Shown: piece after piece, positions 211-21,841 of the stretch | Layout of the letters: every line of letters begins with the position of its first letter | How positions within the stretch are numbered: position 1 is the stretch's first letter | Program-made: the position numbers and the translations under genes | Assembly (NCBI GenBank): GCA_026387835.1 | Contig: JAPLKZ010000001.1 | Span: 1-21,841 of the forward strand | From: Candidatus Saganbacteria bacterium | Lineage (GTDB): Bacteria > Margulisbacteria > WOR-1 > JAKLHX01 | Length of the DNA stretch: 21,841 nucleotides | Reading direction: 5' to 3' | The notes under the pieces: generated by a model | The model's database searches: none | Seen by the model: the letters and a program-made list of their open reading frames with translations, nothing else | Told to the model about the DNA's origin: nothing

Positions 211-211
211 A

Positions 212-508: not shown

Positions 509-534
509 ATATAAAAAAGCGAGGTGATGAAAGA

Positions 535-744: not shown

Positions 745-1379
745 CAGTGCGTCAAGATAACTAATATTGCAATGCCAAGAATATGGCTATTCTCTAATCC
801 TAATAGTGAATAAGGAGAACCAGATGGGCAAGGGAGAATGAGTAATAACTTGTCCAAAGCTCTGGTGAAAAGGCAGATAAGGGGCAAACGTTGAATGTCA
901 CCAAGACGGTCTGCTTACCTGTGATTGGAAATGGCTAAGGTGAGGTCGTGCGAACTTGAATCCGTGTTTGAAATCTCGTGATCTATGAACATCTCAAAAC
1001 AACGATATGGGATGTAGTAAAAAAGGTAATCCTTAATGCCGTCATGTAAGGATGAAAATCATATTCCCGAATGATGAAGCCTCTGGTTAAATTAGGATAT
1101 AAACCATGCTCTTTTTACGAGGGCGTAAAGAACGTAAAGATTAGAATCAAATCAATAAGACTCTATCCCTAAAACGGGGTGTAGCGGAAGCCTAAAACCA
1201 ATCGAAACAGTGCAATATTGGAACTTGAGAACTTCACATCTCGGTCAGAAATGACTGGATTAACTGCAATTGATGTGAGATGTGAAGGGCGGAAGATTCG
1301 TAGTAGTCTGAAGTATGGAAAGCATACTACAAGGCAAAGGAATCTAGCTAATCTAAAATTCTAAAAGGAAGTAGGGAGT

Positions 1380-3125: not shown

Positions 3126-3226
3126 GGAACACGTGCCCTACTCTGTTACTATCCAATCTGCTTATATCCACAACTCATGACCCGCTTGCAGGTCTGCTTG
3201 GCTCAAACACAGATGGGAAGATATAC

Positions 3227-4207: not shown

Positions 4208-4278
4208 CCCTTTAATATAGCTCATTAACAAATGCGGAAGGCTTTAATTCGAAAGCCTTTAGCTAAAGAATTTATATA

Positions 4279-4313
4279 GCGTCAATGACCTGAGTGTTAT
4301 TGACGCTTTTTTT
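4279..4313 (+). terminator. rho-independent terminator downstream of dnaN
   Basis: A 9-bp stem agcgtcaat (4278-4286) / attgacgct (4299-4307) with a 12-nt loop, running into a 7-T tract (4307-4313). Confidence 0.65.
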
Positions 4314-4367
4314 ATTGCTTATGACTGCATAAAAATCTGACGCATTCTCTTATGTCAAATTTTTCTA

Positions 4368-4396
4368 TTGACAGTCTCACATACGAGATTTACAAT
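4368..4396 (+). promoter_or_regulatory. near-consensus sigma70-type promoter for the paralog array
   Basis: TTGACA (4368-4373), an exactly 17-nt spacer, then TACAAT (4391-4396). It sits in an AT-rich intergenic region about 84 nt upstream of ATG 4480. Confidence 0.6.
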
Positions 4397-4479
4397 TTGT
4401 GAAGAATAGATCCTTATGGATTAGATATAAGACAATAAATCATAATAGCTGATTATTTTAGGTGAGAAAGAGAATCATA

Positions 4480-7400
4480 ATGCAATGCCCAAAGTGTAAG
4501 CACGATAATCGAGAAGGCAGGAAGTTTTGTGCCAAATGCGGCGCCAAAATGGGATGGGTATGTCCAAAGTGTGGCTTTGAAAATGAAGCAGATGAGCTGT
4601 TCTGTGGTGAATGTGGAACTAAGCTTGGAGAATTTCAACCACCAATACAACCTACTATTCCCAAACTAGAGGACATGCAAAGCAGACTATACATCCCGGA
4701 GCCGCTCAGGAAGCGAATGGACTCAGCTATGCAGGAAATGGAGGGTGAGAATCGTCTCATTACTACACTCTTCGCTGATATATCGGGCTTTACCCAACTA
4801 TCGCAGGAACTATCACCAGAGGATATAGTAGAGAAGGTCAACCAGTGTTTCCAAGCGATAACTGACGCCATCTATCGCTGTGAAGGCAATATCAATCGTT
4901 TCATTGGTGACTGCGTATTAGCGTTCTTCGGCGCTCCACTTACCCATGAGGATGACCCGTATCGTGCTGTCATGTCTGGACTGGATATGATAAGTGCAGT
5001 ATCCAATATTGGTCTGAATATCAAGGTTGGCATCAACACTGGCATGATGTACTTCGGTCCCATCGGCACACAGGAACACAGTGAGATCAGTGCTTATGGT
5101 GAAGATATAAACCTTGCTAAACGCCTACAAGAGTCTGCACAGCCCGGTCAGGTCATCGTGGGAGAGAGGACACACCGATACACCCGCAAAGCCTTCGAAT
5201 TTGAGCAATTGCCACCATTGGAACTTAAAGGCATAAAGAAACCCATATCAGCATATATAGCCATCAAGCAGTTGTCAAAGCCAGAGAAGATAAGGGGTAT
5301 AGAAGGCTTGAGAGCAGAGATGATAGGTCGTGATGAGGAACTTGGTAAACTCAAAGAATCGCTTGATGACGTGATACATGGTCGTGGTCAGATGGTATCA
5401 ATCATAGGCGAAGCTGGAGTCGGTAAGTCACGTCTGGTAACTGAACTGAAGAAGCTTGCTCTTAACACTGATAATTCAGGTCCATTATGGTTAGAAGGTC
5501 GCTGTCTTTCATTGGGAGTGACAGCAAGCTACTGGGCATTTATAGACATATTCAGAGAATACTTCGGATGGGGAACTGATGAATCAGACACTACAAGGGC
5601 AGAGAGTATAGTCTCATGCTTGAAGGATATAGTATCTCAAGGTGATATGACGGAGGATCGCTATGATGAGATAGGACCAATGCTAGGGAATTTGTTATCT
5701 GTCAAGTTTGGCAATGACTGGGACGATAGGCTTAAAACCGCAGACCCACAGCAGATCAAGCACAGGACGTTCATGGCAGTTAGAGATTTCTTCATCGCTC
5801 TTTGTAAACGCCAACCTGTTATACTGGTGTTTGAGGATTTGCACTGGGCAGACAGCCTATCGCTTGATTTGATCTCATTGCTTATGGAAGCGTTAACGCT
5901 TGCACCTTTATTCTTAGTATGCGTGTATCGTCCGGAAAAAGAGCATAAGTCATGGCATCTAGGAACGATAGCATCACAGAAATGCTCGGAGAGATACACA
6001 GAGATCCATCTTAGAGAACTAACACATCAGCAAAGCCAAAGGCTAATAGAGTCATTACTAAGAATTGAGGACTTGCCGGTATCTGTTAAGGAAATGATAT
6101 TGAGTAAGTCACAGGGCAACCCATTCTTCGTAGAGGAAGTCATCCGTTCATTGATAGAGATGGGAATGGTATACAGAGAGAACGACAAGTGGTTCGCAAG
6201 GGCAGGCATAGAGTCAATCGCCGTTCCAGAGAGTATTCAAAGCGTAATACTGAGTCGTATAGACAGGCTGGAAGATGAGTTACGGCATATCCTTCAGAGC
6301 GCATCGGTCATAGGGTGTTTATTCCGTAGAAACCTTCTTGAGAGAGTGACACAGCAGGAATCAGAATTGGAGCGTGACTTATGGGATTTAGAAGATCATG
6401 AGCTAATCTATCAAGAAAGAATAGTTCCAGAGGAGGAGTATTCATTCAAGCATGCCTTCACACAGGAAACGGTGTATGGAAGTATCCTATCACGCAGGCG
6501 TTCAGCGTTCCATCAGCAGGTGGCGGAAGCTATGGAACTGTTATATGGAGACAGCCTAAGCGAATATTATGAGCAGTTGGCATATCATTATGACAGGAGC
6601 AGTAATGCAGAGAAAGCAGTGGAATATCTGTTGAAGGCTGGTGAGAAGTCACGGGAAGCATACTTGAATGATGATGCTATCAGGTATTTCCAGTGTGCAT
6701 TAGAGCGACTTAATACTTCTAAGTTGAGTGAGTCAAGAAAGGATTTGAAATTATCCGCACTCAAAGACTTGGGACAGGTCTGCTTTGGAACTGGAAAACT
6801 TATAGAAGCTGAGAATTTCTTCCGACAAGCGATCTCTTTAGGGAAAGAAATGGATTTAGCTATCCGTGAATTAGTGCGGATTTATTATTGTTTAGGGGAT
6901 GTATTTTATTATCAAAGCCGATATGATGAAATGCTTCATATAGGAGAAGATGGATTAGCACTTTTGGGTGATGACACGGAATCTGTGGAATCTGCTTTGA
7001 TGAATGATACTATAGCACAAGGTTATGATTCCAAAGGAGATAATAAAAAATATCAGGAATTTATGTTACGGGACGTGCAACTCATTCAAAGATTACCCTA
7101 TTCGGTGGAAATTGTTGGTATTTATTCTCACATTGCTGAAATGTATTCAAATTATGGAAATTTGGAAGATACAATGAAATGGTTACAAATCCAAGAACAG
7201 AAAGGGATACAATATCATGATTTGAGAGTATTGGCTGAGATGCACTTATTTACAAGTTTCACCATTTCTGAAAAAAAAGGTGATTTTCGTGATGGTATTT
7301 CACACCTTCAATATAGCTTGGAACTATTCACTAAAATAGGGGATGTTAAACAAATAGGCACTTCTTTTACTATTATGGGATATTATTTCTTACAGCTTGG

Positions 7401-8427
7401 AGAGTTTCAAGAAGCCGAGGAATATATATACAAAGCACTAGAGATTGTAAAGAGCATAAACCATAGGAGAGATATAGGAATATCATACCTTTTTATTGGT
7501 AATCTCTCACTTTATAAGTGTTTGTTTGAAAAAGCTATAGACAATTATCAAAAAGCCATTCAAATCTTTCAAGAGATTGGTTTTGTTATACTTGAGAAAT
7601 GGACATTTATCTGTTTAGGTCGCGCATATTTGGCCTTTGGAAAACATCAAGAAGCTCTAAAACAATTTCAAGGGACAATTGATTATGATCTCGGTGGTGC
7701 ATTAAGCGGGTTGGAAGAGATTTATATAGCAGAGGAATTCCAAGCCTTCTGTCGTAGCTTCAGAGAGGAGCATCCCTACGCTGGAGGCTCTCAATTCGTC
7801 CAATGGTTTCTGGAACCGTCAGAAGCCAGAGATTTCCCAAGAAGACTATTCCTTGACGATTTTGCAGAATCTCTTTCATCATGGAACTGGAATGATCCGT
7901 TTGGTGATTGCTCACACACAACAAATAATGATCTGGAAATTCATGCGGCAAATGGACGAAATCTCCAGTATCTTAATCTGAGTGCACCAAGAATTCTTCG
8001 ATTAGCAGAAGGGAACTTCGCTATCCAGACTGTTTGTATTCCTGTATCGGAAGATAAACCTACCATCGGTGGAATCCTGATCTGGAAGGATAAAGATAAT
8101 TACCTTCGCCTCGACAGAGGAACAAGGGGTAAATATGAGATCAACTTCTCAGGCTTCATTATAAACCAGTACTTAACCTTCGGTCGTGGGCGTCTGGTTT
8201 CTGATAGAATATTCTTGAGGCTTGAGCGGATTGATAACACAGTCAATGCCCTTTGCAGTCCAGATGAAAATGAATGGTTCACTGTCGGTCATGTAGAATT
8301 CCTTGTTGATGATCCTGTAGAGATTGGGCTTTTCGCCATCGGTATGATAGACCGCACCATCTATCACGGCGCATTTCCTGATGGAACAGCCATCATGTTT
8401 GAGTCATTCGAGTTGTGGGGACAATGA
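4480..8427 (+). CDS. paralog 1: double zinc ribbon - class III nucleotidyl cyclase - STAND/AAA NTPase - TPR-like repeats - ConA-like (DUF1349-like) C-terminal domain
   Basis: All paralogs begin M[QKR]C[PL]KC, so ATG 4480 is preferred over GTG 4462. Zinc ribbons (4x CxxC) 4486-4617. Cyclase about 4750-5270 (TLFADISGFT, RFIGDCVLAFFGAP, INTGMMYFGPIG, YGEDINLAKRLQ). Walker A GEAGVGKS 5407-5430. Walker B ILVFEDLHWAD 5821-5853. GNPFFVEEVIRSL begins at 6115. Helical/TPR-like region about 6520-7700. C-terminal beta-sandwich-like domain about 7850-8424 (WNWNDP, GGILIW, FLRLERIDN..ALCSPDENEW). Confidence 0.9.
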   Translation: MQCPKCKHDNREGRKFCAKCGAKMGWVCPKCGFENEADELFCGECGTKLGEFQPPIQPTIPKLEDMQSRLYIPEPLRKRMDSAMQEMEGENRLITTLFADISGFTQLSQELSPEDIVEKVNQCFQAITDAIYRCEGNINRFIGDCVLAFFGAPLTHEDDPYRAVMSGLDMISAVSNIGLNIKVGINTGMMYFGPIGTQEHSEISAYGEDINLAKRLQESAQPGQVIVGERTHRYTRKAFEFEQLPPLELKGIKKPISAYIAIKQLSKPEKIRGIEGLRAEMIGRDEELGKLKESLDDVIHGRGQMVSIIGEAGVGKSRLVTELKKLALNTDNSGPLWLEGRCLSLGVTASYWAFIDIFREYFGWGTDESDTTRAESIVSCLKDIVSQGDMTEDRYDEIGPMLGNLLSVKFGNDWDDRLKTADPQQIKHRTFMAVRDFFIALCKRQPVILVFEDLHWADSLSLDLISLLMEALTLAPLFLVCVYRPEKEHKSWHLGTIASQKCSERYTEIHLRELTHQQSQRLIESLLRIEDLPVSVKEMILSKSQGNPFFVEEVIRSLIEMGMVYRENDKWFARAGIESIAVPESIQSVILSRIDRLEDELRHILQSASVIGCLFRRNLLERVTQQESELERDLWDLEDHELIYQERIVPEEEYSFKHAFTQETVYGSILSRRRSAFHQQVAEAMELLYGDSLSEYYEQLAYHYDRSSNAEKAVEYLLKAGEKSREAYLNDDAIRYFQCALERLNTSKLSESRKDLKLSALKDLGQVCFGTGKLIEAENFFRQAISLGKEMDLAIRELVRIYYCLGDVFYYQSRYDEMLHIGEDGLALLGDDTESVESALMNDTIAQGYDSKGDNKKYQEFMLRDVQLIQRLPYSVEIVGIYSHIAEMYSNYGNLEDTMKWLQIQEQKGIQYHDLRVLAEMHLFTSFTISEKKGDFRDGISHLQYSLELFTKIGDVKQIGTSFTIMGYYFLQLGEFQEAEEYIYKALEIVKSINHRRDIGISYLFIGNLSLYKCLFEKAIDNYQKAIQIFQEIGFVILEKWTFICLGRAYLAFGKHQEALKQFQGTIDYDLGGALSGLEEIYIAEEFQAFCRSFREEHPYAGGSQFVQWFLEPSEARDFPRRLFLDDFAESLSSWNWNDPFGDCSHTTNNDLEIHAANGRNLQYLNLSAPRILRLAEGNFAIQTVCIPVSEDKPTIGGILIWKDKDNYLRLDRGTRGKYEINFSGFIINQYLTFGRGRLVSDRIFLRLERIDNTVNALCSPDENEWFTVGHVEFLVDDPVEIGLFAIGMIDRTIYHGAFPDGTAIMFESFELWGQ

Positions 8428-8446
8428 TATTGTATGAGGTTTCATT

Positions 8447-11400
8447 ATGAAATGCCCGAAATGCCAAAGCGAATATCAGGTAGGAGATAAATTCTGTAGA
8501 GAGTGTGGAACGAAGCTACCATCCATCTGCCCACAATGCAGACACGAAGTGAGTCCAAAAGATAAGTTTTGTCCCGAATGTGGAACCGACCTTGTAAAGA
8601 CCCAGAAGGTTGACCAAAAAGTAACTGCTCCAAGTCTGGAGGATTTATATACTAGGCTTCAGCGCTCCATGCCGCAATCCCTTGCCGAAAAGATTCAGAC
8701 TGCCATTGCTACAGAAGGTGAGAACAGGATATTGTCAATCCTATTCGCTGACGTCACCAATTCTGTTGCTATCACTGAAAATATGCCTCCGGAAGATTCT
8801 GCTGACCTGATCAGCGAATGTCTCAAGTCAATGACAGATCCGATACTCAGGCATGGCGGATTCATCAATCGCTATCTAGGAGACAGCGTTCTGGCATTTT
8901 TCGGCATACCTGAAACCCATGAAAATGATCCAGAAAGGGCTATATTGTCCGCACTGGAAATGCGAGATGCTGTAACAAAGCTGAATCTGAGCATAAAGAT
9001 CAGCATCAATACAGGCATGGTTTTCGTCGGCGCCATAGGTCCAGACTCTCATAGCGAGTTTACAGCTATGGGTACTGCAGTGAACCTTTCCGCTAGATTA
9101 AAGGACATAGCGGAACCGGGGCAGATCCTTGTAGGTGAAACCACGTATCGCTCAACGAGACGCTCTTTCGAGTTCCAGCCATTGCCTTTATTGACAATCA
9201 AAGGCATCAGCGAACCCATACATGCTTATGAAGTGATAAAGCCATTGCCAAAGCCAGAGAAAATTCGTGGCATCGAGGGCATAGGGTCAGAAATGATCGG
9301 CAGGGATAAGGAGTTCTCGGAACTAAAAGAATGTGTGGATGAGTTACTAGCCGGCAAGGGACAGATCGTCTCAATTATCGGGGAAGCAGGTGTTGGTAAA
9401 ACCAGATTGGTATCTGAGTTGAAAGAGTATCTCAGACAAAAAATAAAAGATAAAAAGGGATCCTCAATCTTTCATCCTTATTTAGAAGGTCGTGGCGTTT
9501 CCATTGGTGAATCTGTCGGTTACTGGGTATTCATTGACATTCTGAGAAGTTATCTGGAATTCTCTGAGCAAGACAGCCTTGATGACCGCAAAAAGAAAAT
9601 CATAGACAGGATGCAATCGCTTTTCCCGCAGAGATGGGAAGAGATTGTTCCCTACATAGGCAACCTGCTTTCGGTCAGATTTGACAATGAATGGGACGAA
9701 AAGATCAAGTATCTCCCACCGGAACAGGTTAAGTATCAGACTTTCCTTACGTTGAGGGACATATTTCTCATTCTTGCGCAGCAGAACCCGCTTCTGCTCA
9801 TTTTTGAGGATTTACATTGGGCAGATAACCTGTCATTAGATATGATAAACCTTCTGATGGATATTCTCACCATCTCACCGCTTATGATACTGTGCATATA
9901 TCGTCCGGAGAAGGAACACAAAAGCTGGCACATCGGGACACGTGCATCAGGCAAATGCCTTGAACGGTATAGGGAGATAACGCTCAGAGCATTGAACCCT
10001 CATGAGAGCAGGATGCTGATAGAGTCACTACTCACCATAGAAAACCTTCCTGAATCAGTTAAGCAGACTGTCACAAACAAGGCAGGAGGTAATCCATTCT
10101 TCGTTGAGGAAGTCATAAGGTCGTTGATAGAGAGAGGTGTAGTCTATCAGGACGGGGATAGATGGATCGCCAAGGAAGACATCAATGATGTAGAGGTGCC
10201 AGATACCATTCAGAGTGTTATCATGGCAAGGATAGACAGGTTAGAGGAGGAGGTTAAGTATGTGCTTCAGAGCGCATCGGTGATAGGCAGGCTATTCCGA
10301 TACAATCTGTTGCGATATATCACACAGCAGGAGGGAAATCTGGACGGTTACCTTTGGCAGTTAGAGGAGAGGGATCTGGTATATGAGGAGCACGCTATAC
10401 CTGAACTGGAATACAGTTTCAAGCATGTCCTTACGCAAGAGACAGCATACAACACAATATTATCGCGCAGGCGCAGAGAATTCCATCGCAAGGTGGCAGA
10501 GGGATACGAAGCATTGTATTCATCGCGCATAGAGGAGTGTTACGAGGAACTGGCATATCATTACAGCAGAAGTGATGATAAAGATAAAGCATTGGATTAT
10601 CTTGTGAAGGCAGGGGATAAATCTAAAAAGGTTTATGCCAATGAATCGGCTATTGAGTATTACAATCAGGCATTAAAGCTGGCTGAAGTTTCGGAATCAA
10701 AATCTGTTGATGTACTTGGGCATATCTACCAGAGCTTAGGGGAAATATACTTTCCGATGGCAAGGCATAAAGAGGCATTGGAATATTGTCATAAGGCATT
10801 AGAGTATATCACCAATGGGAAACTCCGATCCAGGATCTATGCAATAATGGGTTGGGCTTGTGAACGAGAAGCCAGGTATGATCAAGGATTGGAATATCTT
10901 AATGCTGGAGTTACCGAGCTTGGGGAAGACACAAATTCTGTTGAAATGGCGCGGATATGTATTCCCATGTCATGGATCAAAGGCGATCAGGGAAAGCTGG
11001 AAGAAGGCATAAAGATAGCGAAAAATGGGCTGAAAGTAGTAGAAGGAACTGATTCCATTCCCGAAATACAGGATTTACTCATCTTCCTTGCCCTTGTAGT
11101 CTGTTTGTCCGGTGATACAGATAAGGCTTTCGAGTATGCGCGAAAATCGGTGGAGGTTGCTGAGAAATCCGGGAATAGCTATTTTATCGCGAACACAACT
11201 CTCCATCTTGGATGGGTATACTGGTATGCTGGTGAGGATGATGTTTCTATTAGACTCATGGAAAAGGCATTAGAGATTTTCAAGAAGCTAGATTACCAGT
11301 TTTTCATTGGTCAAGCCTGCTCTTATATTGGGCGAGTGTATTATGGAAGGAACGATTGGGATATGGTTATTATATACTTTGAAGAGTTTCTAAAAATGCC

Positions 11401-12322: not shown

Positions 12323-12350
12323 AAATCAAGATGGCAAGAGGTGAAAGATA

Positions 12351-15300
12351 ATGCGATGTCCGAAATGCAGACACGAAAATCGTGATGAGGCTAAGTTTTG
12401 TGAGGAATGTGGGGAGAAGCTACAGCATAAATGCCCCAACTGCGGCGCTGAACTGAGACCAAACGCCAAATTCTGTGATGAGTGTGGAACTAAAGTTTCG
12501 GAGCAATCCTCTGCAAAAACCACTGCTATTCCCAAGCTCGAAGATATGCACGCACAACTGCAAAGCCTGATACCTGACGCCTTAGCTCAGAAATATCTAT
12601 CCGCAACACAGCAGGCTATTGGTGAGAACCGTCCCATAACTGCGCTGTTCGCTGACATATCAGGATTCACCCCTCTATCAGCTTCCCAATCATCAGAATC
12701 CGTATTCCAGTTGGTGCAGGAGTGCTTCAAGCAACTGGTTAGTATTGTCGCCAGTTATGAAGGAAGTATCAGCGGATTTCGTGGTGACGGTCTGCTTGCC
12801 CTATTTGGTGCGCCTATCCTGCATGAGAACGATGCTGAGAGAGCAATTCTAGCGGCAATAGATATGAGAAAGATGATGGAAGACAGACAACTTGGTATAT
12901 CTATTGGCATCAATACTGCCATGATGACTGTCGGTGAGATACAGACCCAGCTGCATAGTGAATATACTGCTTATGGAACAGATATTAACCTTGCCAAGAG
13001 ATTACAGGAAGCCGCTATGGCTGGCCAGATACTGGTAGGATCAGGAACTCATCGTCTTACCAGACGTGCATTCGACTTTCAGGAAATACCATCGCTGGAA
13101 CTGAAAGGATTCAGCCAACCAGTTACAGCTTATGTCCTACAACATATAAAATCACATCCTGAGAAACTGCGTGGTATCGAGGGATTGCGAGCAAGGATGG
13201 TTGGCAGGGATAAAGAATATGAGGAACTCATAGACGTTACAGAGGAATGGATTGCTGGCAAGGGACAGATAATATCTATCGTGGGTGAAGCAGGGATCGG
13301 CAAGTCAAGACTGGTATCTGAGTTGAAGGGTCACCTTGAAACAGATAGCAGTCATGCTCATCTATATCTCGAAGGGCGTTGCATCTCCATTGGACAACCT
13401 ATCAGCTACTGGCCGTTCCTTGACATTCTGAGAAGCTGGTTTAGTCTGAGTGAGGAGGATACCGAAGCTGAAATGGCAAATAAAGTTAGACAGCAGATAG
13501 AATCATTCATGCCAGATAGGACTGATGACATTCTCCCATTCTTGGGACAGCTTATGAACCTTCAGTTCGGTGGAGAGATAGACACAAGATTAACACATTA
13601 CAGTCCAGAGCAAGTGAAACAAGGAATAATGATGCGCCTGCGGGACATATTCGAGGCACTGTCACAGCGTAATAATCTGATGCTGATCCTTGAGGACCTT
13701 CATTGGGCGGATGAACTGTCACTTGACCTTATATCCTTACTGATGGATGAATTGATGGCGCATCCACTGATGTTAGTGTGTGTATACCGTCCAGAACAGG
13801 GACACAATGTCTCAAGGTTGAGCAGTATAGCTCGTAGGAAGTGTCTTGAGAGATACACGGAGATCGCACTCAAACCACTGCCTGATCCCGAAGGCAGAAG
13901 GCTTGTGCATGAACTTCTAGCGATAGATGACCTTCCAGACAGCGTGCGAGATATGATCCTTGCTAAGTCAGAGGGGAACCCGTTCTTCATTGAGGAAGTG
14001 ATCCGCTCATTAATGGAACAAGGGTTGGTATACAAGGATGATGACAGTTGGGTGGCAAAGGCTGACGTGATTGAGGTTCAAGTTCCGGATACGATACAGA
14101 GCGTTATACTAGAGCGAGTAGATAGGCTGGAATCAGAAGCCAAATATGTATTACAGTGTGCCAGTGTTATAGGCAGGCTGTTTAAGTATCGGTTATTAGA
14201 TCACATAACCCAGAAGCAGAAGGAATTGGATGGATACCTTGATGAATTCGAGGAGCGTTATCTTGTGTATCCAGAGCGAACAGTTCCAGAGATGGAGTAT
14301 GCCTTCAAGCACGTACTGACACAGGAAGCTACATATCAGGGGATACTGGAACAGAGAAAGCAGGCATTCCATCGTAATGTGGCGCTGGGTATCGAAAGGC
14401 TATATAAAGAACGTATAGAGGATTTTTACGAGGAATTAGTTTATCATTGGGAACGAAGCAAGGACAGAGAGAAAACACTTGAGTATCTTGTGAAGGCTGG
14501 AAAGAAATCGGCAAAGCATTATTTGAATCAGGTCGCTATTGATTATTATACCCTTGCAATTAAAATGGCTAATGAAGTTGGCATATTGGAGGATAGGTTG
14601 GCTGAGATATACGAAGCTAGAGGATGGGTTTATAATGATATGGGTTTTTACGAAGAATCTATATCTGATATGATGAAAGCAGCGGATTTTTATGCCAATA
14701 AATCAAAGCGTGCTAATATGTATAGGCAGATTGCTCGTAATTATTGGGCACGTATTACTGATATAGAACAAGGTTCCCAATATTTCTACAAAGCAATAGA
14801 GGAGATCGATCCTTCGGATAAATCCCGAGAGACTGCTGGCATTTATGAAGATGCGGGAGCATTCTTCATCTACATGGGTGGAGATACAAAAGAAGGGGAG
14901 CGCCTTTTGCGGAAAGCCATCGCTATATCAGAAGAGATGGGATATAATGATCTATTGGCTATGCATTACAGGTGGTTATATATACTCAATTGGAGTTCTG
15001 ACGAGGAGGAATTCAGGAAACAACGACAGTTTGCACGAGAAAAAGCAATTTCCTATCTACCTTACCTCAAACCTAATCTGTCCCAATATGCGGAAGTATG
15101 TGGTCAATTGGGGTGGGGTTTTCATTTCGATGATCGCTTTCTGATAGAAGCTTTTGAATCTGCTGTAAAGTCCGAGAATAACTGGTCGGTTGTGGCGTTT
15201 GGGTCAATGTTGGCAATCATATATTGTGGTCAGGGAAAGATTCAGAAAGCTATTGAAGTATACGAACAGGGATGGCGATCCGCCGTATTATCAAGACAGC

Positions 15301-16676
15301 TTCAAGGAGGGCATGTCATACGACTTACAATTGGTCTTGTTGGTATGTATGTATCACGAGAAGATCGATCCAGATTGTTGGACATGATGCTCCAGATGGT
15401 AGACTCGACCATAGAATTGCATAGTAAGTCAGAAGTTCATCCAACAGTTCAGCACCGGTGGAATGAAATATTAGAGGGTATATATAAGATAATTCATGCA
15501 ATGGCTCCGGAAATATACTATGAACTGGAGCATTTGCTGGAATCACATCTGAACGAAACCAATACCGATGGTGTGAGATTTTTCTATTATGGACAACTCA
15601 TGCTGTTAGCTTTACTAGATGGTCGTCCTGTTGATGCAGAATCCTATATGCAAGAATTACTAAAGCTACATCCATATGCAGGAAGCTTTGCCCAACGAAT
15701 ATCAAAAAAATTATTATATGATATCGAATTAATGAACGCGCTGTCAGAACAGCGAATGTCAATAACTACAAATTTGCTTAGATCTTCTGAGAAATTCGAT
15801 GATTTTGAGAAAGCCCTGGATGCCATGAGCTGGGTGTTGACAAAAGACGAAATCTCTGCCGCTATAGATTGGACTCACCTGAATTATACCGTCTTGAATG
15901 AGCTTCAGAAGCAACGCCGATTGCTTCTCATATATTCTGAAAGAAGCGATATACTGCGAGATGTGGAGTATATCTATGATTGTTATGATTATAGAAGCAA
16001 ACTTCAATCGCTGGCAGACCAAGTTCAGCAGACAGCTGCTAACGCTCTGCAAGAGGAAGGGATAACCCAATTATTTCTCGAACAGATGGAACCGTTGGAA
16101 ATTGGCTTACTTGAGTTAATGGATCAATTCAAGCAAGATCCTACAACTGCTGGTTGGGAATGGGTGGATCCCACAGGATATTGCCGCTATAAATCAGACG
16201 AAGAAGGTTACTTGCAGATTGACGTTCCGCCAGGACATGAATTGAGTGAAGGATTTTATATGCGTAATGCCCCCCTTATGTTACGGACTATTTCAGGTGA
16301 CTTTATCCTTGAGACGAAGATTGCTGACGGTTCCACCGGTATAAAGCGTGGCGGATTGCTCCTATGGAATTCAGAGACTAACTTTGCTCGTTTTGGGGTT
16401 GATTTTGATTATATATCTTATAAAGCAACTGCAAATGGAAAATTCATCAGTCCCGGAGTGCATCCATTTAAGGCAGAAAGAGTCTGGCTTAGGTTAGAAC
16501 GCAAGGGATCTCGTTTCACTGGGTATGTGAGTAATGATGGTAAATATTGGTATCGCTGTGGGTGGGCTGATATCACCATGAACGATTCTATCAAAGTGGG
16601 TATCTACGCTTCTTGTTTTTATCCACCGGCGACATCAACAAGATTTGAATATTTCAAGATATATAGACCCAAGTAA
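12351..16676 (+). CDS. paralog 3: double zinc ribbon - class III cyclase (type b) - STAND/AAA NTPase - TPR-like repeats - extra helical module - ConA-like C-terminal domain
   Basis: SD agaggtga 12337-12344; 28-nt gap. Cyclase about 12630-13140 (ALFADISGFT, SGFRGDGLLALFGAP, INTAMMTVGEIQ, YGTDINLAKRLQ). Walker A GEAGIGKS 13284-13307. MLILEDLHWADELSLDL and GNPFFIEEVIRSLME are present. C-terminal domain about 16150-16673 (WEWVDPTG, ISGDFILETKI, GGLLLW, VWLRLERKGSRFTGYVSNDGKYW). Confidence 0.9.
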   Translation: MRCPKCRHENRDEAKFCEECGEKLQHKCPNCGAELRPNAKFCDECGTKVSEQSSAKTTAIPKLEDMHAQLQSLIPDALAQKYLSATQQAIGENRPITALFADISGFTPLSASQSSESVFQLVQECFKQLVSIVASYEGSISGFRGDGLLALFGAPILHENDAERAILAAIDMRKMMEDRQLGISIGINTAMMTVGEIQTQLHSEYTAYGTDINLAKRLQEAAMAGQILVGSGTHRLTRRAFDFQEIPSLELKGFSQPVTAYVLQHIKSHPEKLRGIEGLRARMVGRDKEYEELIDVTEEWIAGKGQIISIVGEAGIGKSRLVSELKGHLETDSSHAHLYLEGRCISIGQPISYWPFLDILRSWFSLSEEDTEAEMANKVRQQIESFMPDRTDDILPFLGQLMNLQFGGEIDTRLTHYSPEQVKQGIMMRLRDIFEALSQRNNLMLILEDLHWADELSLDLISLLMDELMAHPLMLVCVYRPEQGHNVSRLSSIARRKCLERYTEIALKPLPDPEGRRLVHELLAIDDLPDSVRDMILAKSEGNPFFIEEVIRSLMEQGLVYKDDDSWVAKADVIEVQVPDTIQSVILERVDRLESEAKYVLQCASVIGRLFKYRLLDHITQKQKELDGYLDEFEERYLVYPERTVPEMEYAFKHVLTQEATYQGILEQRKQAFHRNVALGIERLYKERIEDFYEELVYHWERSKDREKTLEYLVKAGKKSAKHYLNQVAIDYYTLAIKMANEVGILEDRLAEIYEARGWVYNDMGFYEESISDMMKAADFYANKSKRANMYRQIARNYWARITDIEQGSQYFYKAIEEIDPSDKSRETAGIYEDAGAFFIYMGGDTKEGERLLRKAIAISEEMGYNDLLAMHYRWLYILNWSSDEEEFRKQRQFAREKAISYLPYLKPNLSQYAEVCGQLGWGFHFDDRFLIEAFESAVKSENNWSVVAFGSMLAIIYCGQGKIQKAIEVYEQGWRSAVLSRQLQGGHVIRLTIGLVGMYVSREDRSRLLDMMLQMVDSTIELHSKSEVHPTVQHRWNEILEGIYKIIHAMAPEIYYELEHLLESHLNETNTDGVRFFYYGQLMLLALLDGRPVDAESYMQELLKLHPYAGSFAQRISKKLLYDIELMNALSEQRMSITTNLLRSSEKFDDFEKALDAMSWVLTKDEISAAIDWTHLNYTVLNELQKQRRLLLIYSERSDILRDVEYIYDCYDYRSKLQSLADQVQQTAANALQEEGITQLFLEQMEPLEIGLLELMDQFKQDPTTAGWEWVDPTGYCRYKSDEEGYLQIDVPPGHELSEGFYMRNAPLMLRTISGDFILETKIADGSTGIKRGGLLLWNSETNFARFGVDFDYISYKATANGKFISPGVHPFKAERVWLRLERKGSRFTGYVSNDGKYWYRCGWADITMNDSIKVGIYASCFYPPATSTRFEYFKIYRPK

Positions 16677-16690
16677 TCTGGAGTATTGAT

Positions 16691-19600
16691 ATGAAATGTC
16701 TTAAATGCAAGCAAGATAATCCGTCAGAAGCTCTGTTCTGTATGAAGTGCGGGACAAAGCTTGAGCGAAAGTGTCCCAACTGTGGAGCAGAATATCCAGA
16801 AGAAGCTGCATTCTGCATGAAATGTGGAAAAAAACTAAAGGAAGCACCAGAATCGGCAATCCCCAAGCTAGAAGACATGCAAGATAAACTCTACATCCCA
16901 GAACCACTCAGGCAGAGGATGGATACTGCCAAACAAGAGTTACAGGGAGAAAACCGTCTTGTCACAGCGTTATTCGCAGATATATCAGGATTCACTCCTC
17001 TATCCAACCAACACTCTCCTGAGAATGTGGTAAACATAGTGAACGACTGCTTCAAGGTCATAGTTGATACTATATTCAGATACGAAGGCAATCCTAATCG
17101 GTTCATAGGCGACAACGTCCTAGCATTCTTCGGTGCGCCAATAACACATGAGAACGATCCAGAACGTGCTATTATGTCAGCACTGGAAATGCGTGATAAA
17201 GTCAGAGAACTATCACTTAATATATCAGTTGGCATTAATACTGGAATGATGTATTTCGGACCCATCGGCACTAAGGAGCATCTGGAAGTCAGCGCATACG
17301 GACCAGACATCAATCTTGCCAAGAGATTGCAGGAGATAGCAAATCCCGGTCAGATACTGGTAGGTTCTGGGACATACAGGCTTACCAAGAGAGCATTCGA
17401 CTTCCAACAGACACCATCACTTAACCTGAAAGGCATAGATAAACCCGTGACTGCTTATGAGGCAGCAAAGATAAAAGAGCATCCAGAGAAGCTCAGAGGC
17501 ATAGAGGGCTTACAGTCACGCATGATCGGCAGGGAACATGAATTTACCGAGTTGAGAGACACAGTGGATATGTGGCTATCCGGTCAAGGACAAATGGTCA
17601 GTATAATAGGTGAAGCGGGTATAGGCAAGTCAAGGTTAGTCAAAGAGATAAAGGGGTTTATCAACGATAAGCCATGTCTATGGCTAGAAGGACGTTGTAT
17701 ATCCATAGGACAGCCCATAAGCTATTGGCCATTTATTGATATGTTCAGAACGCTATTCGATCTGAAGGAGGATGATAACGAGAAGGATATTGCTAGGAAG
17801 TTAAAGGATAATATAACAGAGCTATTCCCTAATAGAGCAGATGATATATTGCCATTCATAGGACACCTTATGTCCATCCAGTTCGGAGATGAGCTAGACA
17901 GCAAGCTTGATGGATATGGTTCAGAGCAGATCAGGTATCAGACTATGGTGAGACTGAGGGACATATTCGCAACCATAGCAAGAAGCAAGCCTTTATTACT
18001 CATACTGGAGGACTTGCACTGGAGTGATGAGTTATCCCTTGACCTAATAGCGATGCTGATGGATGAGCTTGTTACCAGTCAGATGCTTCTGTTGTGTGTT
18101 TACAGACCGGAGCAGGATCATAAGTGCTGGAAACTCAGTGGGATGGCACAGCGTAAGTGCTTTGAGAGCTATACTGAGTTACAGTTGAAGAAGCTCAACA
18201 GGACACAGAGCTATGAGATGGTTCACTCACTTCTTGCCATAGATGCCCTTCCAGATAGTGTCAGGGATATGATCCTTGTCAAGTCAGAGGGTAATCCATT
18301 CTTCATAGAGGAAGTGATACGTTCACTCATGGAGAGGGAATTGGTGTATAAAGATGGTGATAGATGGACAGCGAAGTCAGGCATAGAACATATAGACGTT
18401 CCCGACACAATACATGGGGTGATAATGGAGCGAATTGACAGGTTAGAGACAGAGACGAAGTATGTCCTACAATGTGCCTCTGTCATCGGCAGATTATTCA
18501 GATACAGGCTTCTTGATCACTTAATGAGCCATGAGCGTAAACTGGATGATTATCTCGATGAGCTAGAGGGTAGGGAGTTAGTGTTAGAGGAGCGTGCTAT
18601 GCCAGAGCTAGAATACACGTTCAAGCACGTACTGACACAGGAAGCGACCTACCAGACCATCCTAGAGCAAAGGAGAAGGCAGTTCCACAGACAGGTTGCA
18701 GAAGGCATAGAACGATTGTATCAGGATCGGATAGAGGAATTCTATGAGGAGCTTGCTTATCACTGGGAGCGAAGCAGGGATCAGGAAAAGACGTTAGAAT
18801 ATCTTATAAAGTCTGGGGAGAAAGCCACAAAAAACTACCTAAATGACATTGCTATTGACTATTATACACGGGCAATTCAGTTGGCGGAGGAACTAAGGAT
18901 TACCGGTGACAGGCTTGCAGAAATATACGAAAGGCGTGGAGGTGTATACCAATCCATCGGTTTTCTGGAGGAATGTGTCTCCGATACCACTGAGGCTGCG
19001 GATCTTTACACACAGAGAACTAGGCGTGCCAGCATGTATGCGCGGATTTCCCGTCTTTATTATGGAACTATATGTCAAGGGCAGGCAACAGATGAAGGTC
19101 TAATCTATTCTCGTAAAGCCATTGAGGAGATTGACCCGACAGATAGATCACGAGAAGCTATTATGACGTATCTACGTGCAGGCTGGGTCCGTAGTCTGGA
19201 AGAATGGGAGCCCATTCTGAATAAAGCCATAGCTATTTCAGAGGAGGAGGGATATAGAGATCTCCTTGCCCACCTACATGCGCTTCTATACTATCTACGC
19301 CTGGGAGTGGGTGGACTAGAAGAGCAAGCTAGGCTTGAGCGGGAAAAGGCTCTCTATTATCTACCGCACCTCAAGCATGACTTAACTGAATACGCAGCAG
19401 CTTGTAGTTTATTGGCGTTTTGGGGGAGTGAGAATGAGCGAATTAGCCTTGCAAGGGAAGCTATGGAAGCCGCGGCTAAATCCGGGAAGAGCTGGTCAAC
19501 TGTGGTATCGGCAGATCAACTGGGCACATATTATCTCCGCCAGGGAGAGACTCAAAGAGCCATAGAGATATTTGAGGAAGGATGGCAGGCTGGCGTCCGA

Positions 19601-21001
19601 AGCAGACAGCTTCACTGGACTATGATCGGAGTTACTCGCAACCTTATGCACCTGTATGTCTCCATCGGGCAGTCTTCAAAGGTTCACGAAATGATGCTCC
19701 AGATGGTGGATTCCACGTTTGTAATGCACGGCAAGTCCATAGTTTACTCTATAATGCGACAAAGATGGAATAACCTGGTGGAAGAGACCTATGAATTCCT
19801 GTACACTATTGCTCCGGAGGTATACTACCAACTGAAACAGTCACTGGAATCCTGCTTGAGCGAAGCTGATACTGATAGTGTGCGGTTCTTCTACATGGTA
19901 CAGGTCATACTGCTGGCTTTACTGGGTGGTCGCCAGGAGGACGCAGAGGTACTAGCACAGGAGCTAATGGAATTGCGACCTCGGGCAGGAAACTTTGCAA
20001 AGAGGGTTTCTCAGAGGGTCGAATATGCCGCTGAATTGTTGAATTCTCAAAAGGACCAAAGACCGATGATAGCAAGAAAACTCTTGAGTTCACTTGATTC
20101 TTTCGAGAATCTACATGAAGCCCTGACTGCTCTGTCCTGGGTGCTTCCAAAGGGCATAATTGCGCAGGCAGTAGACTGGAACCATGCGCAGCGGCTGGCA
20201 CTGGATTACATCAAGGGGCATATTAAGCATATACTGGATATGGTCTCACCAGTATGGATACAGGTAGGGCGTATTTTCAGACGATATGACCGTGAAGATG
20301 ACCTGCGTTGGATACTGGATCAGATACAGCAAACCGAACCAGATGGTATGAGGAAATATGATCTCACTCAGTTGCTGCTGGAACCAGTGGAATTAAAAGA
20401 ATCAGGTTTTCCTGAGTTGTTAGAGCAATTCACTCAGGACCCAGTATCTGCTGGTTGGGAATGGGTGAATCCTGTGAAAACCAACAGTTACTCGACGGAG
20501 AAGGATGGTTTGCAGATTACTGCCCTTCCATACCCTCATTCTAGTTATCTTGAGGATCATGATTTTCCACGGATGTTGAGATACATTTCTGGCGATTTCA
20601 TAGCTGAAACGAAGATTTTTGACGGGGATAACGGAAAGAAGTCCGGCGGCCTGCTTGTGTGGAAGAATGAGGTTAAATGCATCCGTCTTGAGGTACCGTC
20701 CAATGATTTGGAGGAAGATATAGTCTGTTATTGGGCAAGTTCCGCAGGAAAACCTATAGACGCGGGCACACATCCCTTTGAGGCAAAAGAAGCCTGGCTG
20801 CGGTTAGAGCGAAAGGGAGATCGATTTGTCGGATATGTGAGTTCCGATGGGGAAAATTGGTATCGCTGTGGTCAAGTGGACGTCCCAATGAAAGACCCTA
20901 TCCAATTGGGGATTCTCGCCTGCTGCCCCCGAGGGCCGACGACTTCGACGCGTTTTGAGTATTTCAAGATATATAGACCTGATAAACAGACCGATTCATA
21001 A
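16691..21001 (+). CDS. paralog 4: double zinc ribbon - class III cyclase (type a) - STAND/AAA NTPase - TPR-like repeats - extra helical module - ConA-like C-terminal domain
   Basis: SD tggag; 14-nt gap. Cyclase motifs ALFADISGFT, NRFIGDNVLAFFGAP, INTGMMYFGPIG, YGPDINLAKRLQ. Walker A GEAGIGKS 17609-17632. LLILEDLHWSDELSLDL and GNPFFIEEVIRSLME are present. C-terminal domain about 20452-20985 (WEWVNP, ISGDFIAETKI, GGLLVW, AWLRLERKGDRFVGYVSSDGENW). Confidence 0.9.
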   Translation: MKCLKCKQDNPSEALFCMKCGTKLERKCPNCGAEYPEEAAFCMKCGKKLKEAPESAIPKLEDMQDKLYIPEPLRQRMDTAKQELQGENRLVTALFADISGFTPLSNQHSPENVVNIVNDCFKVIVDTIFRYEGNPNRFIGDNVLAFFGAPITHENDPERAIMSALEMRDKVRELSLNISVGINTGMMYFGPIGTKEHLEVSAYGPDINLAKRLQEIANPGQILVGSGTYRLTKRAFDFQQTPSLNLKGIDKPVTAYEAAKIKEHPEKLRGIEGLQSRMIGREHEFTELRDTVDMWLSGQGQMVSIIGEAGIGKSRLVKEIKGFINDKPCLWLEGRCISIGQPISYWPFIDMFRTLFDLKEDDNEKDIARKLKDNITELFPNRADDILPFIGHLMSIQFGDELDSKLDGYGSEQIRYQTMVRLRDIFATIARSKPLLLILEDLHWSDELSLDLIAMLMDELVTSQMLLLCVYRPEQDHKCWKLSGMAQRKCFESYTELQLKKLNRTQSYEMVHSLLAIDALPDSVRDMILVKSEGNPFFIEEVIRSLMERELVYKDGDRWTAKSGIEHIDVPDTIHGVIMERIDRLETETKYVLQCASVIGRLFRYRLLDHLMSHERKLDDYLDELEGRELVLEERAMPELEYTFKHVLTQEATYQTILEQRRRQFHRQVAEGIERLYQDRIEEFYEELAYHWERSRDQEKTLEYLIKSGEKATKNYLNDIAIDYYTRAIQLAEELRITGDRLAEIYERRGGVYQSIGFLEECVSDTTEAADLYTQRTRRASMYARISRLYYGTICQGQATDEGLIYSRKAIEEIDPTDRSREAIMTYLRAGWVRSLEEWEPILNKAIAISEEEGYRDLLAHLHALLYYLRLGVGGLEEQARLEREKALYYLPHLKHDLTEYAAACSLLAFWGSENERISLAREAMEAAAKSGKSWSTVVSADQLGTYYLRQGETQRAIEIFEEGWQAGVRSRQLHWTMIGVTRNLMHLYVSIGQSSKVHEMMLQMVDSTFVMHGKSIVYSIMRQRWNNLVEETYEFLYTIAPEVYYQLKQSLESCLSEADTDSVRFFYMVQVILLALLGGRQEDAEVLAQELMELRPRAGNFAKRVSQRVEYAAELLNSQKDQRPMIARKLLSSLDSFENLHEALTALSWVLPKGIIAQAVDWNHAQRLALDYIKGHIKHILDMVSPVWIQVGRIFRRYDREDDLRWILDQIQQTEPDGMRKYDLTQLLLEPVELKESGFPELLEQFTQDPVSAGWEWVNPVKTNSYSTEKDGLQITALPYPHSSYLEDHDFPRMLRYISGDFIAETKIFDGDNGKKSGGLLVWKNEVKCIRLEVPSNDLEEDIVCYWASSAGKPIDAGTHPFEAKEAWLRLERKGDRFVGYVSSDGENWYRCGQVDVPMKDPIQLGILACCPRGPTTSTRFEYFKIYRPDKQTDS

Positions 21002-21018
21002 TATAGAGGATATGGTTT

Positions 21019-21841
21019 ATGCAATGTCCCAAATGCAAATATGAGAATAGAAAAGGTAGAAAATTCTGCTCTGAATGTGGAACTGAACTTGGTTGGGTAT
21101 GTCAGCACTGTGGTTTTGAAAACGAACCGAACGAAAAATTCTGCGGCGGATGTGGTAAACCTTCTGATACAAAACCCTCTACGGAAACTGTAGAAACGAA
21201 CATCCCGACGTTAGAGAAAATTCATTCAGAATCTAAGAACTGGATACCCGACGCCCTTGCACAGAAATATCTGTCAGCAGAACAACAATATACTGGAGAG
21301 AATAGACCTATCACAGCATTGTTTGCTGATATATCAGGATTCACTCCGCTATCCGCTACCAAGTCGTCTGAGACGATATTCCAAATGGTGCAGGATTGCT
21401 TTAAGCAATTGGTCAGTATCGTTGCTAAATATGAAGGTAGCATAAGCGGATTTAGAGGCGATGGACTGTTAGCACTATTTGGTGCCCCAATACTCCACGA
21501 GAACGATGCTGAACGTGCTATCCTGTCAGCAATTGATATGCGTAATGTCATGCAGGATTATCAATTGCAGGTATCTATAGGTATCAATACAGCAATGATG
21601 ACCGTTGGAGAGATACAGACACAATTGCATAATGAATACACAGCCTATGGAACAGATATTAACCTAGCAAAGAGATTACAGGAATCAGCGGGAGCTGGAC
21701 AGATACTCGTAGGTAGTGGAACACACCGTCTTACACGCCGGGCATTTGATTTTGATATAATTCAAAACCTTACAGTGAAGGGATTTGCTCAATCTGTCAC
21801 AGCCTATTCCGTTAAGCAAGTGAAGGCGCATCCTGAGAAGC
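21019..21841 (+). CDS. paralog 5 (5' part only, runs off the window): double zinc ribbon - class III cyclase (type b)
   Basis: Absent from the ORF track because no stop is reached. ATG 21019 with SD agagga 21005-21010; 17-nt gap. My translation: MQCPKCKYENRKGRKFCSECGTELGWVCQHCGFENEPNEKFCGGCG...IPDALAQKYLSAEQQYTGENRPITALFADISGFTPLSA...SGFRGDGLLALFGAPILHENDAERAILSAIDMR...INTAMMTVGEIQTQLHNEYTAYGTDINLAKRLQ...KAHPEK. The frame is open to base 21841. Confidence 0.85.
   Translation, partial: MQCPKCKYENRKGRKFCSECGTELGWVCQHCGFENEPNEKFCGGCGKPSDTKPSTETVETNIPTLEKIHSESKNWIPDALAQKYLSAEQQYTGENRPITALFADISGFTPLSATKSSETIFQMVQDCFKQLVSIVAKYEGSISGFRGDGLLALFGAPILHENDAERAILSAIDMRNVMQDYQLQVSIGINTAMMTVGEIQTQLHNEYTAYGTDINLAKRLQESAGAGQILVGSGTHRLTRRAFDFDIIQNLTVKGFAQSVTAYSVKQVKAHPEK

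Follow-up and report, generated by a model that had tools for sequence, protein, structure and literature searches.

A 21,841-nt stretch of DNA from Candidatus Saganbacteria (contig JAPLKZ010000001.1 of assembly GCA_026387835.1, positions 1 to 21,841 of the forward strand; at this full length, the window) carries a tandem array of five paralogous genes, P1 to P5, which encode large proteins combining a double zinc ribbon (DZR), a class III nucleotide cyclase, a STAND NTPase and a repeat-containing tail. Our analysis indicates that members of this protein family are very probably mosaics produced by recombination. The DZR (~45-60 aa) forms a first block, the cyclase (~200 aa) a second, and the NTPase with its helical core a third, followed by a sensor tail that can be replaced on its own; switches between blocks fall at short junction islands conserved in all paralogs, and syntenic near-orthologs differ by clean internal replacements of the kind that gene conversion or double crossover leaves. 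The five copies in the window sample five different combinations and show no recent exchange among themselves. An initial annotation of this DNA had proposed that recombination or gene conversion between the array members created their motif combinations; its recombination reading is right in substance and in the placement of the N-terminal breakpoint, while the attribution to exchange within the array is wrong or at least unproven.

The window contains seven long open reading frames (ORFs), all on the plus strand. The five tandem, same-strand paralogs occupy 4480-21841, with P1 to P4 complete and P5 cut by the window end, and the spacers P1/P2, P2/P3, P3/P4 and P4/P5 measure 19, 28, 14 and 17 nt. 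All paralogs share the Pfam order DZR/Zn_Ribbon_1, Guanylate_cyc (class III cyclase), AAA_16, TPR repeats and DUF1349/GH43_C2 (ConA-like). Among the homologous proteins, which carry four-digit numbers below, NCBI protein P0121 is P1 itself (identical from the ATG at 4480) and P0001 is identical to P4; the record name for the identical NCBI proteins is 'AAA family ATPase'. The genes and their zinc ribbons are as follows.

4480..8427, plus strand: P1, 1315 aa; DZR class A (GW.C..CGF.NE), cyclase type a, short-tail NTPase, TPR, ConA-like C-terminus
8447..12322, plus strand: P2, 1291 aa; DZR class 'KFCRECG..PS.CP', cyclase type d, short tail
12351..16676, plus strand: P3, 1441 aa; DZR class FCEECG/FCDECG, cyclase type b, long tail
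16691..21001, plus strand: P4, 1436 aa; DZR class FCMKCG/FCMKCG, cyclase type a, long tail
21019..21841, plus strand: P5, 274 aa up to the window end; DZR class A and cyclase type b
4486-4617 (P1, aa 3-46), 8453-8584 (P2), 12357-12488 (P3), 16697-16828 (P4) and 21025-21156 (P5), plus strand: double zinc ribbons

The initial annotation had distributed two zinc-ribbon types and two cyclase types over the paralogs, and every motif on which it built this scheme is present where it was said to be. The zinc-ribbon motif GWVC..CGFENE is found in P1 and P5 and KCPNCGAE in P3 and P4; the cyclase motifs LYIPEPLR.RMD, NRFIGD.VLAFFGAP and INTGMMYFGPIGT occur in P1 and P4, and IPDALAQKYLSA, SGFRGDGLLALFGAPILHENDAERAIL and INTAMMTVGEIQTQLH in P3 and P5. 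Farther downstream, EGRCISIGQPISYWPF and GNPFFIEEVIRSLME are shared by P3 and P4 and GNPFFVEEVIRSLIE by P1 and P2, and the tails are long in P3 and P4 and short in P1 and P2, as the protein lengths above reflect. Amino acid identities fit the scheme as well: in the second ribbon P1-P5 reach 64% and P3-P4 56% (remaining pairs 36-48%), and in the cyclase core P3-P5 reach 85% and P1-P4 68%, against 53% for P1-P3. At the same time, a two-by-two scheme is too simple. Ribbon type A is a real family-wide class (19 sequences), but type B consists of two such classes, since the P3 DZR (FCEECG...FCDECG) groups with P0057 and others while the P4 DZR (FCMKCG...FCMKCG) groups with P0020, P0078 and P0123, a split supported by quartet sites of 9:0:0 and a bootstrap of 1.00. 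What stands is that the five combinations differ from one another; they are drawn from four DZR and three cyclase classes (a, b and d).

The segments of these genes carry conflicting histories. For the quartet P1, P4, P3, P5, with parsimony-informative sites counted in the order (14|35):(13|45):(15|34), the cyclase gives 37:0:1 and the DZR 2:1:5 (Fisher p = 1e-4), and downstream of the cyclase the grouping (P1,P2|P3,P4) is favoured 64:11:12 with bootstraps of 0.96-1.00. Neighbour-joining bootstraps with 96 taxa place P1 with P4 in the cyclase (1.00), and P3 with P4 in both the NTPase (0.96) and the C-terminus (1.00). The conflict between cyclase and NTPase is decisive only once sequences from outside the window are added: the quartet (P1,P4|P3,P0057) receives 36:1:3 in the cyclase, whereas counts of 8:8:22 in the NTPase plus helical region and 4:2:53 in the TPR region plus C-terminus favour the alternative topology (Fisher p = 1e-17), and (P4,P0020|P3,P0057) is favoured 47:2:1 in the cyclase while (P4,P3|P0020,P0057) is favoured 53:14:6 from the NTPase to the C-terminus. 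In quartets that pair long- and short-tail members with a- and b-type cyclases, the topology switches at the cyclase/NTPase border.

Breakpoint tests localise these switches. Maximum-chi-squared (max-chi2) triplets put a breakpoint after residue 43 in P5 (12/6 vs 4/75) and in P1 (14/4 vs 10/54), and the best breakpoints fall after residue 62 of P1 (29/0 vs 26/230) and residue 62 of P4 (22/3 vs 17/571), with a permutation p <= 1e-4 for every one. The initial annotation had placed the N-terminal breakpoint near an IP[KT]LE linker, and max-chi2 and nucleotide alignment agree on this site, IPKLEDM (aa 60-66 of P1 and 57-63 of P4). A second breakpoint, near PEK[LI]RGIEG, is bracketed by P4 residues ~219/250 on one side and ~287/302 on the other, and a third is at ~668-724, at the start of the TPR region; each of the three falls on a Pfam domain border. 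The junctions are marked by islands that every paralog conserves: MKCPKC at the start, IPKLEDM, PEK[LI]RGIEG and, ahead of the TPRs, the YEELAYH..RS region. The segments of P1 and the corresponding linker of P4 map as follows.

4657..4677, plus strand: P1 IPKLEDM linker, the DZR/cyclase breakpoint by max-chi2
4678..5277, plus strand: P1 cyclase domain, type a (Pfam Guanylate_cyc E = 8e-23; catalytic D, D, N and R present)
5281..5307, plus strand: P1 PEKIRGIEG linker, the cyclase/NTPase junction
5278..6654, plus strand: P1 AAA_16 STAND NTPase plus helical module (Pfam AAA_16 E = 1e-26)
6655..8424, plus strand: P1 TPR sensor plus C-terminal beta-sandwich (TPR_12 E = 3e-27)
17483..17509, plus strand: P4 PEKLRGIEG linker, the cyclase/NTPase topology switch

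That segments of the paralogs differ in their histories, as claimed from motifs, is thus borne out by per-segment trees and breakpoint tests that conflict significantly, in a pattern that exceeds chance; significant incongruence between segments together with localised breakpoints is what characterises a mosaic family. The discordant segments are best explained by recombination, since the blocks seen in the amino acids recur at synonymous sites.

Comparison with orthologous arrays, which the initial annotation had proposed as a check, showed conserved gene order with differences in single blocks (the DZR of the P4 ortholog and the sensor of P3). Two loci come from JGI sample 3300062553: L010 holds P1'-P2' (82.9% over 4.9 kb), where P2' follows P1' and is 91% identical to P2, and L011 holds a long-tail gene in the P3 position, P4' and the start of P5'. 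L011 is collinear with window 16425-21068 (82.4% over 4.7 kb), with the P5-like gene start lying 3' of the P4 ortholog. L005 and L006 (ENA and JGI assemblies) contain P3''-P4'' with the same 14-nt spacer. In L001-L004, from four independent Logan short-read assemblies, P2 is present at 100% identity with the P3 start downstream, which confirms that the end of P1, P2 and the start of P3 adjoin. All four contigs start at most 15 nt before P2 and stop within P3 after 128-198 of its codons, shared ends that suggest strain variation or repeat-induced breaks. A search of genome contigs with P3 found only one distant relative (29% identity) and no reference genome with the array, and with the P5 fragment as query most of the proteins recovered were short and partial (best 76% identity), with no full-length P5 ortholog among them.

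Near-orthologs reveal which blocks have been replaced. P4 and P0002 (the L011 protein) are 86% identical in the cyclase, 90% in the NTPase, 97% in the helical region and 86% in the C-terminus, but only 45% in the DZR; with P0123 the relation is reversed, with 91% in the DZR, ~50-55% in cyclase, NTPase and helical region and 29% in the C-terminus. P1 is 84-94% identical to P0122 over all segments, while against P0108 its cyclase (85%), NTPase (81%) and helical region (89%) contrast with an unrelated DZR (45%) and a C-terminus at 61%, the TPR/C-terminal region of P1 being replaced relative to P0108 with a breakpoint at ~residue 724. Against P0092, an L007 gene to which we restored 23 missed upstream codons, P1 is 95% identical in the DZR and ~50% in the remainder. 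P3 and P0008 are ~90% identical up to residue ~690 and 45-58% beyond.

The same blocks are visible in the DNA. The DZRs of P4 and P0002 share 55% of nucleotides and 35% of third positions, with a proportion of synonymous differences (pS) of 0.76, which is saturated, while outside the DZR nucleotide identity is 80-89% and pS 0.23-0.56. Within the collinear P4/L011 DNA only ~codons 7-57 of P4 cannot be aligned, and in the alignment the replaced tract is bounded by ATGAAATGYCC.AAATGCAA (MKCPKC) and the stretch coding for IPKLEDM. Between P4 and the L005 gene that follows P0008, synonymous divergence (dS) is 0.50 in the DZR, 2.0 in the cyclase and saturated in the NTPase. P3 and P0008 show pS of 0.26-0.55 to ~residue 700 and 0.76 thereafter; against L006, window 12351-14723 aligns at 83% and 16433-17635 at 78%, with 14723-16433 between them unalignable, and the right flank of this sensor cassette consists of the last ~250 nt of P3 and the next gene. 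The two replaced tracts are listed here.

16709..16879, plus strand: P4 tract replaced relative to its ortholog P0002 (~codons 7-63, DZR and linker)
14723..16433, plus strand: P3 internal sensor cassette (TPR-like region and part of the ConA-like domain; no nucleotide homology to P0008)

Both tracts are internal, with homologous DNA on either side, and such two-sided flanking homology is the footprint that gene conversion or double crossover would be expected to leave. A block pattern at synonymous sites and homologous flanks, two further marks of a mosaic family, are both found. Judging from dS, which runs from ~0.3 to saturation, the exchanges are old to intermediate in age. At similar dS, dN/dS is 0.22-0.33 in the TPR/sensor segments (P1 726-1110 against L010, P4 721-1235 against L011) and 0.03-0.11 in cyclase, NTPase and helical region. 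Between segments of presumed orthologs dS itself varies several-fold, from 0.27 to 1.25, which hints at further, so far unrecognised exchanges.

The family is large. A search with P4 yielded 5,190 proteins at E <= 1e-20 and one with P1 yielded 5,700 at E <= 1e-50, each among 8,000 scored candidates, and a scan of a single metagenome gave at least 566 confirmed loci; source names of homologs include Poribacteria and Chloroflexi. Distances between segments are correlated to very different degrees, with Mantel r of 0.18 for DZR-cyclase, 0.61 for cyclase-NTPase, 0.87 for NTPase-helical and 0.41 for NTPase-C-terminus, and DZR class and cyclase a/b, when cross-tabulated, are consistent with independent assortment (chi2 p = 0.47). 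In many metagenomes, thousands of homologs show recombination of the same module types. Because we saw no recent exchange among the five window copies, and because blocks assort across the family, we read shuffling as an old and continuing property of the whole family, of which the window array is one sample.

Some relatives carry other N-terminal modules. In P0132, P0133, P0140-P0144, P0043, P0046 and others, SARP/BTAD plus Trans_reg_C, or a receiver domain, replaces the DZR; such SARP- or receiver-bearing homologs align to more than 93% of P1 at 46-51% identity, and the N-terminal slot therefore accepts unrelated kinds of module. Distant relatives (~30-37% identity) are also found in tandem on one strand, with five genes at 493-18726 of L027 and three at 730-12525 of L015. 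In L027 (~32% identical), a DZR is present in one member and a conserved helical N-domain (MD....LDQV.ALLQ..GRV.Y..LK.QF.LD) in four, and two neighbours have cyclases 83-100% identical in amino acids although one carries the DZR and the other the helical N-domain.

The two ribbons of a DZR also resemble one another within a protein, being alike around the second CxxC knuckle (FCMKCG/FCMKCG, FCMECG/FCMECG, FCGKCG/FCGKCG). Across the window DZRs and 187 homolog DZRs, sequences that are not independent, ribbon-ribbon identity is 0.407 within a protein and 0.308 between proteins (permutation p <= 2e-4), which hints at a paired function of the two ribbons. Intragenic conversion between them was considered and rejected, as their nucleotide identity within a window gene (54-63%) is no higher than between genes.

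The domain content points to an enzyme under the control of a sensor. Guanylate_cyc matches all five paralogs (58-81 bits against a cutoff of 21.9), and PDB sequence matches are restricted to the cyclase (2w01, E = 8e-23; ADCY10 and bacterial cyclases). The metal-binding residues D97 and D141 and the transition-state residues N208 and R212 (P4 numbering) are present in P1-P5, at positions that we take to be catalytic from Rv1625c-type cyclases; in a further cyclase type, c, Asp takes the place of the transition-state Asn. Class III cyclases canonically select their substrate through a residue pair, Lys/Asp for ATP or Glu/Cys for GTP. Neither pair is present in types a, b or d, and the substrate cannot be predicted; the base-specifying positions are R137/S201 in type a, G137 (with R139 two residues on)/T201 in type b and R/T in type d, type-specific residues that suggest different substrates or regulation between the cyclase types. 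AAA_16 follows at E = 1e-21 to 1e-27, with invariant Walker A GEAG[IV]GK[ST] and Walker B [LF]EDLHW, so that a P-loop ATPase precedes a helical domain and repeats, the arrangement of an AAA_16-type STAND NTPase. An AF2 model of P4 residues 701-1436 (19 homologs, pLDDT 88) predicts the following tail.

18791..20998, plus strand: P4 long tail, in the model ~29 helices forming a TPR-like solenoid, then a DUF1349 ConA-like beta-sandwich

In Foldseek searches with this model, the best matches to the predicted beta-sandwich were the DUF1349 proteins 3o12 and 3mep (TMt 0.76-0.80), and GH43 C-terminal domains and the LGN TPR were also among the top matches to the tail.

We tentatively propose that these proteins might be STAND sensors with cyclic-nucleotide output, a possibility we hold open rather than favour. 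By analogy with STAND/NLR-type switches, the TPR/ConA-like tail would bind a ligand, ATP-dependent oligomerisation would bring the cyclase domains together, and a cyclic nucleotide would be made. Class III cyclase domains act as obligate dimers. A swap of the cyclase block may alter product or regulation, as types a, b and d keep the catalytic residues and differ at the base positions, and the DZR, a small, freely assorting N-terminal module, may be a pairing, targeting or regulatory tag.

Several points weigh against our interpretation. Trees were built by neighbour-joining or parsimony and not by maximum likelihood, and the homolog sets, being the top matches to P4, P1 and P5, are neither phylogenetically independent nor unbiased. 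The DZR is ~45 aa long with eight fixed Cys, so that few sites carry the support that comes from the window alone, and a cyclase tree from the window alone, with P2 included, gives 0.45 vs 0.54. Exchange of the blocks may have taken place within a genome, between paralogs or between genomes. On the functional side, the model is drawn from domain content alone; no effector gene or gene for a cyclic nucleoside monophosphate (cNMP) receptor lies within the window, where the array neighbours are further paralogs, and PADLOC defence-system models match only through homology to the PycC cyclase domain.

The explanation closest to the initial annotation is that the motif combinations arose when the five array members recently underwent gene conversion or unequal crossing-over with one another. 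Tandem same-strand copies 14-28 nt apart would be a favourable substrate for this, each copy has the conserved junction sequences, and neighbours in the distant array L027 do share cyclase blocks at 77-81% nucleotide identity. In the window itself, however, the expected traces are missing: paralogs are 50-74% identical in nucleotides, no pair exceeds ~74% over a long stretch (the best being the P3-P5 cyclases at 73-74%, with other pairs at 55-68%), the longest exact match is 26 nt, and no near-identical tracts between array members were found by blastn, repeat or exact-match searches. Moreover, the nearest relative of each module is in another metagenome and never a window paralog. The P3-P5 cyclases are 85% identical, compared with 86-90% for P3 or P5 against foreign b-type cyclases, and P1-P4 cyclase similarity is no greater than that to foreign members of the same type, while the combinations of P1 (A+a), P2, the N-terminal half of P3 and P4 (FCMKCG+a) already exist in syntenic arrays of other samples. 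We therefore consider recent exchange within the array decidedly unlikely. It is also improbable, in our view, that the variety of N-termini stems mainly from unrelated small N-domains (DZR, SARP, receiver or helical) having fused repeatedly and independently to cyclase-STAND cores. Homologs with SARP/BTAD or receiver domains in place of the DZR, and the mixture of DZR and helical N-domain in L027, are what such fusion would produce, but discrete conserved DZR classes (up to 95% amino acid identity) are reused before different cyclase/NTPase types, and this reuse requires transfer between family members. Repeated fusion and exchange among family members are not exclusive and can coexist.

Could a single gene tree suffice, if selection had converged on a few permitted states of DZR and cyclase, or if rates had accelerated in some lineages, as in a fast-evolving b-type cyclase? 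The DZR is short and strongly constrained, domain-specific rate shifts can fool triplet tests used alone, every dN/dS value is below 1, and the window-only cyclase quartet with P2, already given, leaves room for this. It is nevertheless very improbable: four-taxon informative sites flip topology sharply at domain borders, synonymous and third-position divergence follows the same blocks, the replaced tracts have collinear homologous DNA on either side, and the DZR of P1 is matched at 95% in a protein ~50% identical elsewhere. Rate acceleration as a cause of the P1/P4 cyclase similarity in particular was ruled out by quartets with outside a- and b-type members. The most improbable of these alternatives is that the mosaics are chimeras of metagenome assembly, in which the assembler switched between paralogs at conserved stretches. 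Every sequence does come from metagenome-assembled genomes or metagenome contigs, and the short Logan contigs break within P3, but window paralogs share exact matches of at most 26 nt and the same junctions recur in independent assemblies (four Logan runs, JGI 3300062553, and ENA and JGI assemblies). Recombination among members of a wide family remains the reading we prefer.

The region upstream of the array contains a promoter-like site. A terminator-like hairpin at 4278-4307 lies 3' of dnaN and 5' of P1 and of the following site.

4368..4396, plus strand: sigma-70-like promoter TTGACA-17-TACAAT, 11/12 matches, the top-scoring site in 17.7 kb

Because the hairpin and then the best promoter-like site precede P1, the array (4331-21841) is probably one transcription unit. 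A leader of ~150 nt before P1 is shared with the orthologous array L010 (5014-5162 of that locus); homology starts at window 4331, and the genes upstream of the leader are unrelated (dnaN and a reverse transcriptase (RT) in the window, Kelch/FG-GAP in L010). Position 4331 is, on this comparison, the left border of the conserved unit.

Farther upstream, an RT/maturase of group II intron type at 1380-3125 is split over three frames (1380-2318, 2332-2808 and 2775-3125). It scores 292 bits against TIGR04416, slightly below the cutoff of 300, and has GIIM/maturase matches too; group II intron RNA domains were not detected by an Rfam search of window 1-4600. The remnant is probably a decayed intron or reflects sequencing frameshifts. 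The dnaN gene (DNA polymerase III beta), at 3140-4207, matches its profile from position 45, with the first ~44 residues absent. Its frame has no stop as far back as ~3140, where the RT/maturase remnant has just ended, so that the intron may have inserted into dnaN or beside it; no 5' exon was found in window 1-1400. We considered the array as the target of a diversity-generating retroelement and rejected this, as the upstream RT is of group II intron type and frameshifted and the window has no repeat resembling a template/variable repeat pair. An ORF at 155-508 has a SWIM-like zinc-finger pattern (CKCVDF...CKHILAV) and no Pfam match at E <= 0.01.

Mosaic evolution by exchange of domains or cassettes is already known for STAND/NLR-type receptors and other multigene families. 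What is new is that a very large, unstudied family of DZR-cyclase-STAND-TPR-DUF1349 proteins behaves as a combinatorial kit with defined joints, that its smallest block, the DZR, assorts almost freely, and that syntenic arrays of related organisms catch single cassette replacements. The joints give concrete boundaries for chimeras, and we predict a difference in product or regulation among cyclase types a, b and d. We consider it unlikely, though worth stating, that the family forms an NLR-like sensing repertoire, with three independently assorting module classes, conserved junctions serving as recombination joints, and arrays selected for non-redundant combinations; the five window paralogs, all different in combination, can be cited for it. 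In such a repertoire paralogs residing together may be paired, insulated from one another or targeted through the zinc-ribbon tag, the cyclase types would perhaps give different cyclic-nucleotide outputs, and the third class would be the TPR/ConA-like sensors. If the proteins are indeed immune or environmental sensors, this would be a case of bacterial repertoire building by module exchange with second-messenger output.

Literature searches found no paper on a DZR-bearing cyclase-STAND architecture or its mosaicism, and a Nature 2026 survey of STAND proteins does not mention cyclases, while cNMP cyclases are listed among the signalling domains of NTPase-centred conflict systems (PMC7159879). 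The cyclase domain is homologous to PycC models of Pycsar (E down to 4e-18); unlike Pycsar, which comprises two genes with a cNMP-activated effector, the cyclase here is part of a 1300-1440 aa STAND protein with no effector gene. The best-scoring curated family is the TOMM system kinase/cyclase fusion (TIGR03903), to whose model positions 267-928 the cyclase and ATPase core aligns, but at 261-272 bits against a cutoff of 705.75, with a DZR instead of the protein kinase and no TOMM genes nearby. With cassette-type mosaic families such as polymorphic toxins and surface-antigen conversion systems, the array shares discrete classes that are recombined and tracts bounded by conserved junctions; it differs in having no adjoining silent or orphan cassettes, gaps of 14-28 nt and old events (dS >= 0.3).

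The initial annotation had likened the array to eukaryotic NLR clusters, and this likeness holds for the STAND ATPase, the variable sensor with raised dN/dS and the tandem arrays, but not for membership in NACHT/NB-ARC. With NLR families (plant, animal, bacterial Avs and bNACHT) the present family shares an N-terminal output, a STAND ATPase and a C-terminal repeat sensor, as well as tandem paralog arrays, exchange of N-terminal and sensor modules and the highest dN/dS in the sensor repeats. Unlike NLRs, it has an AAA_16 ATPase (a single faint NB-ARC match, E = 0.0077 over 28 residues, was seen in P3), a nucleotide cyclase as output, an additional swappable zinc-ribbon block, and no defence-island context or sign of defence function. 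A cyclase-STAND-TPR architecture is found in M. tuberculosis Rv0386, Rv1358 and Rv2488c and in the C-terminal region of mammalian soluble adenylyl cyclase (PMC2447327). With AAA_16/MalT-AfsR-type STAND NTPases the family shares the order of class III cyclase, P-loop ATPase (directly C-terminal to the cyclase) and helical/TPR repeats, the Walker motifs (A, GEAGxGKS; B, ..EDLHW) and TPR_MalT Pfam matches; unlike them, it has no LuxR helix-turn-helix, and it carries an N-terminal DZR and a C-terminal DUF1349 ConA-like domain and is organised in tandem arrays of at least five diversified copies.

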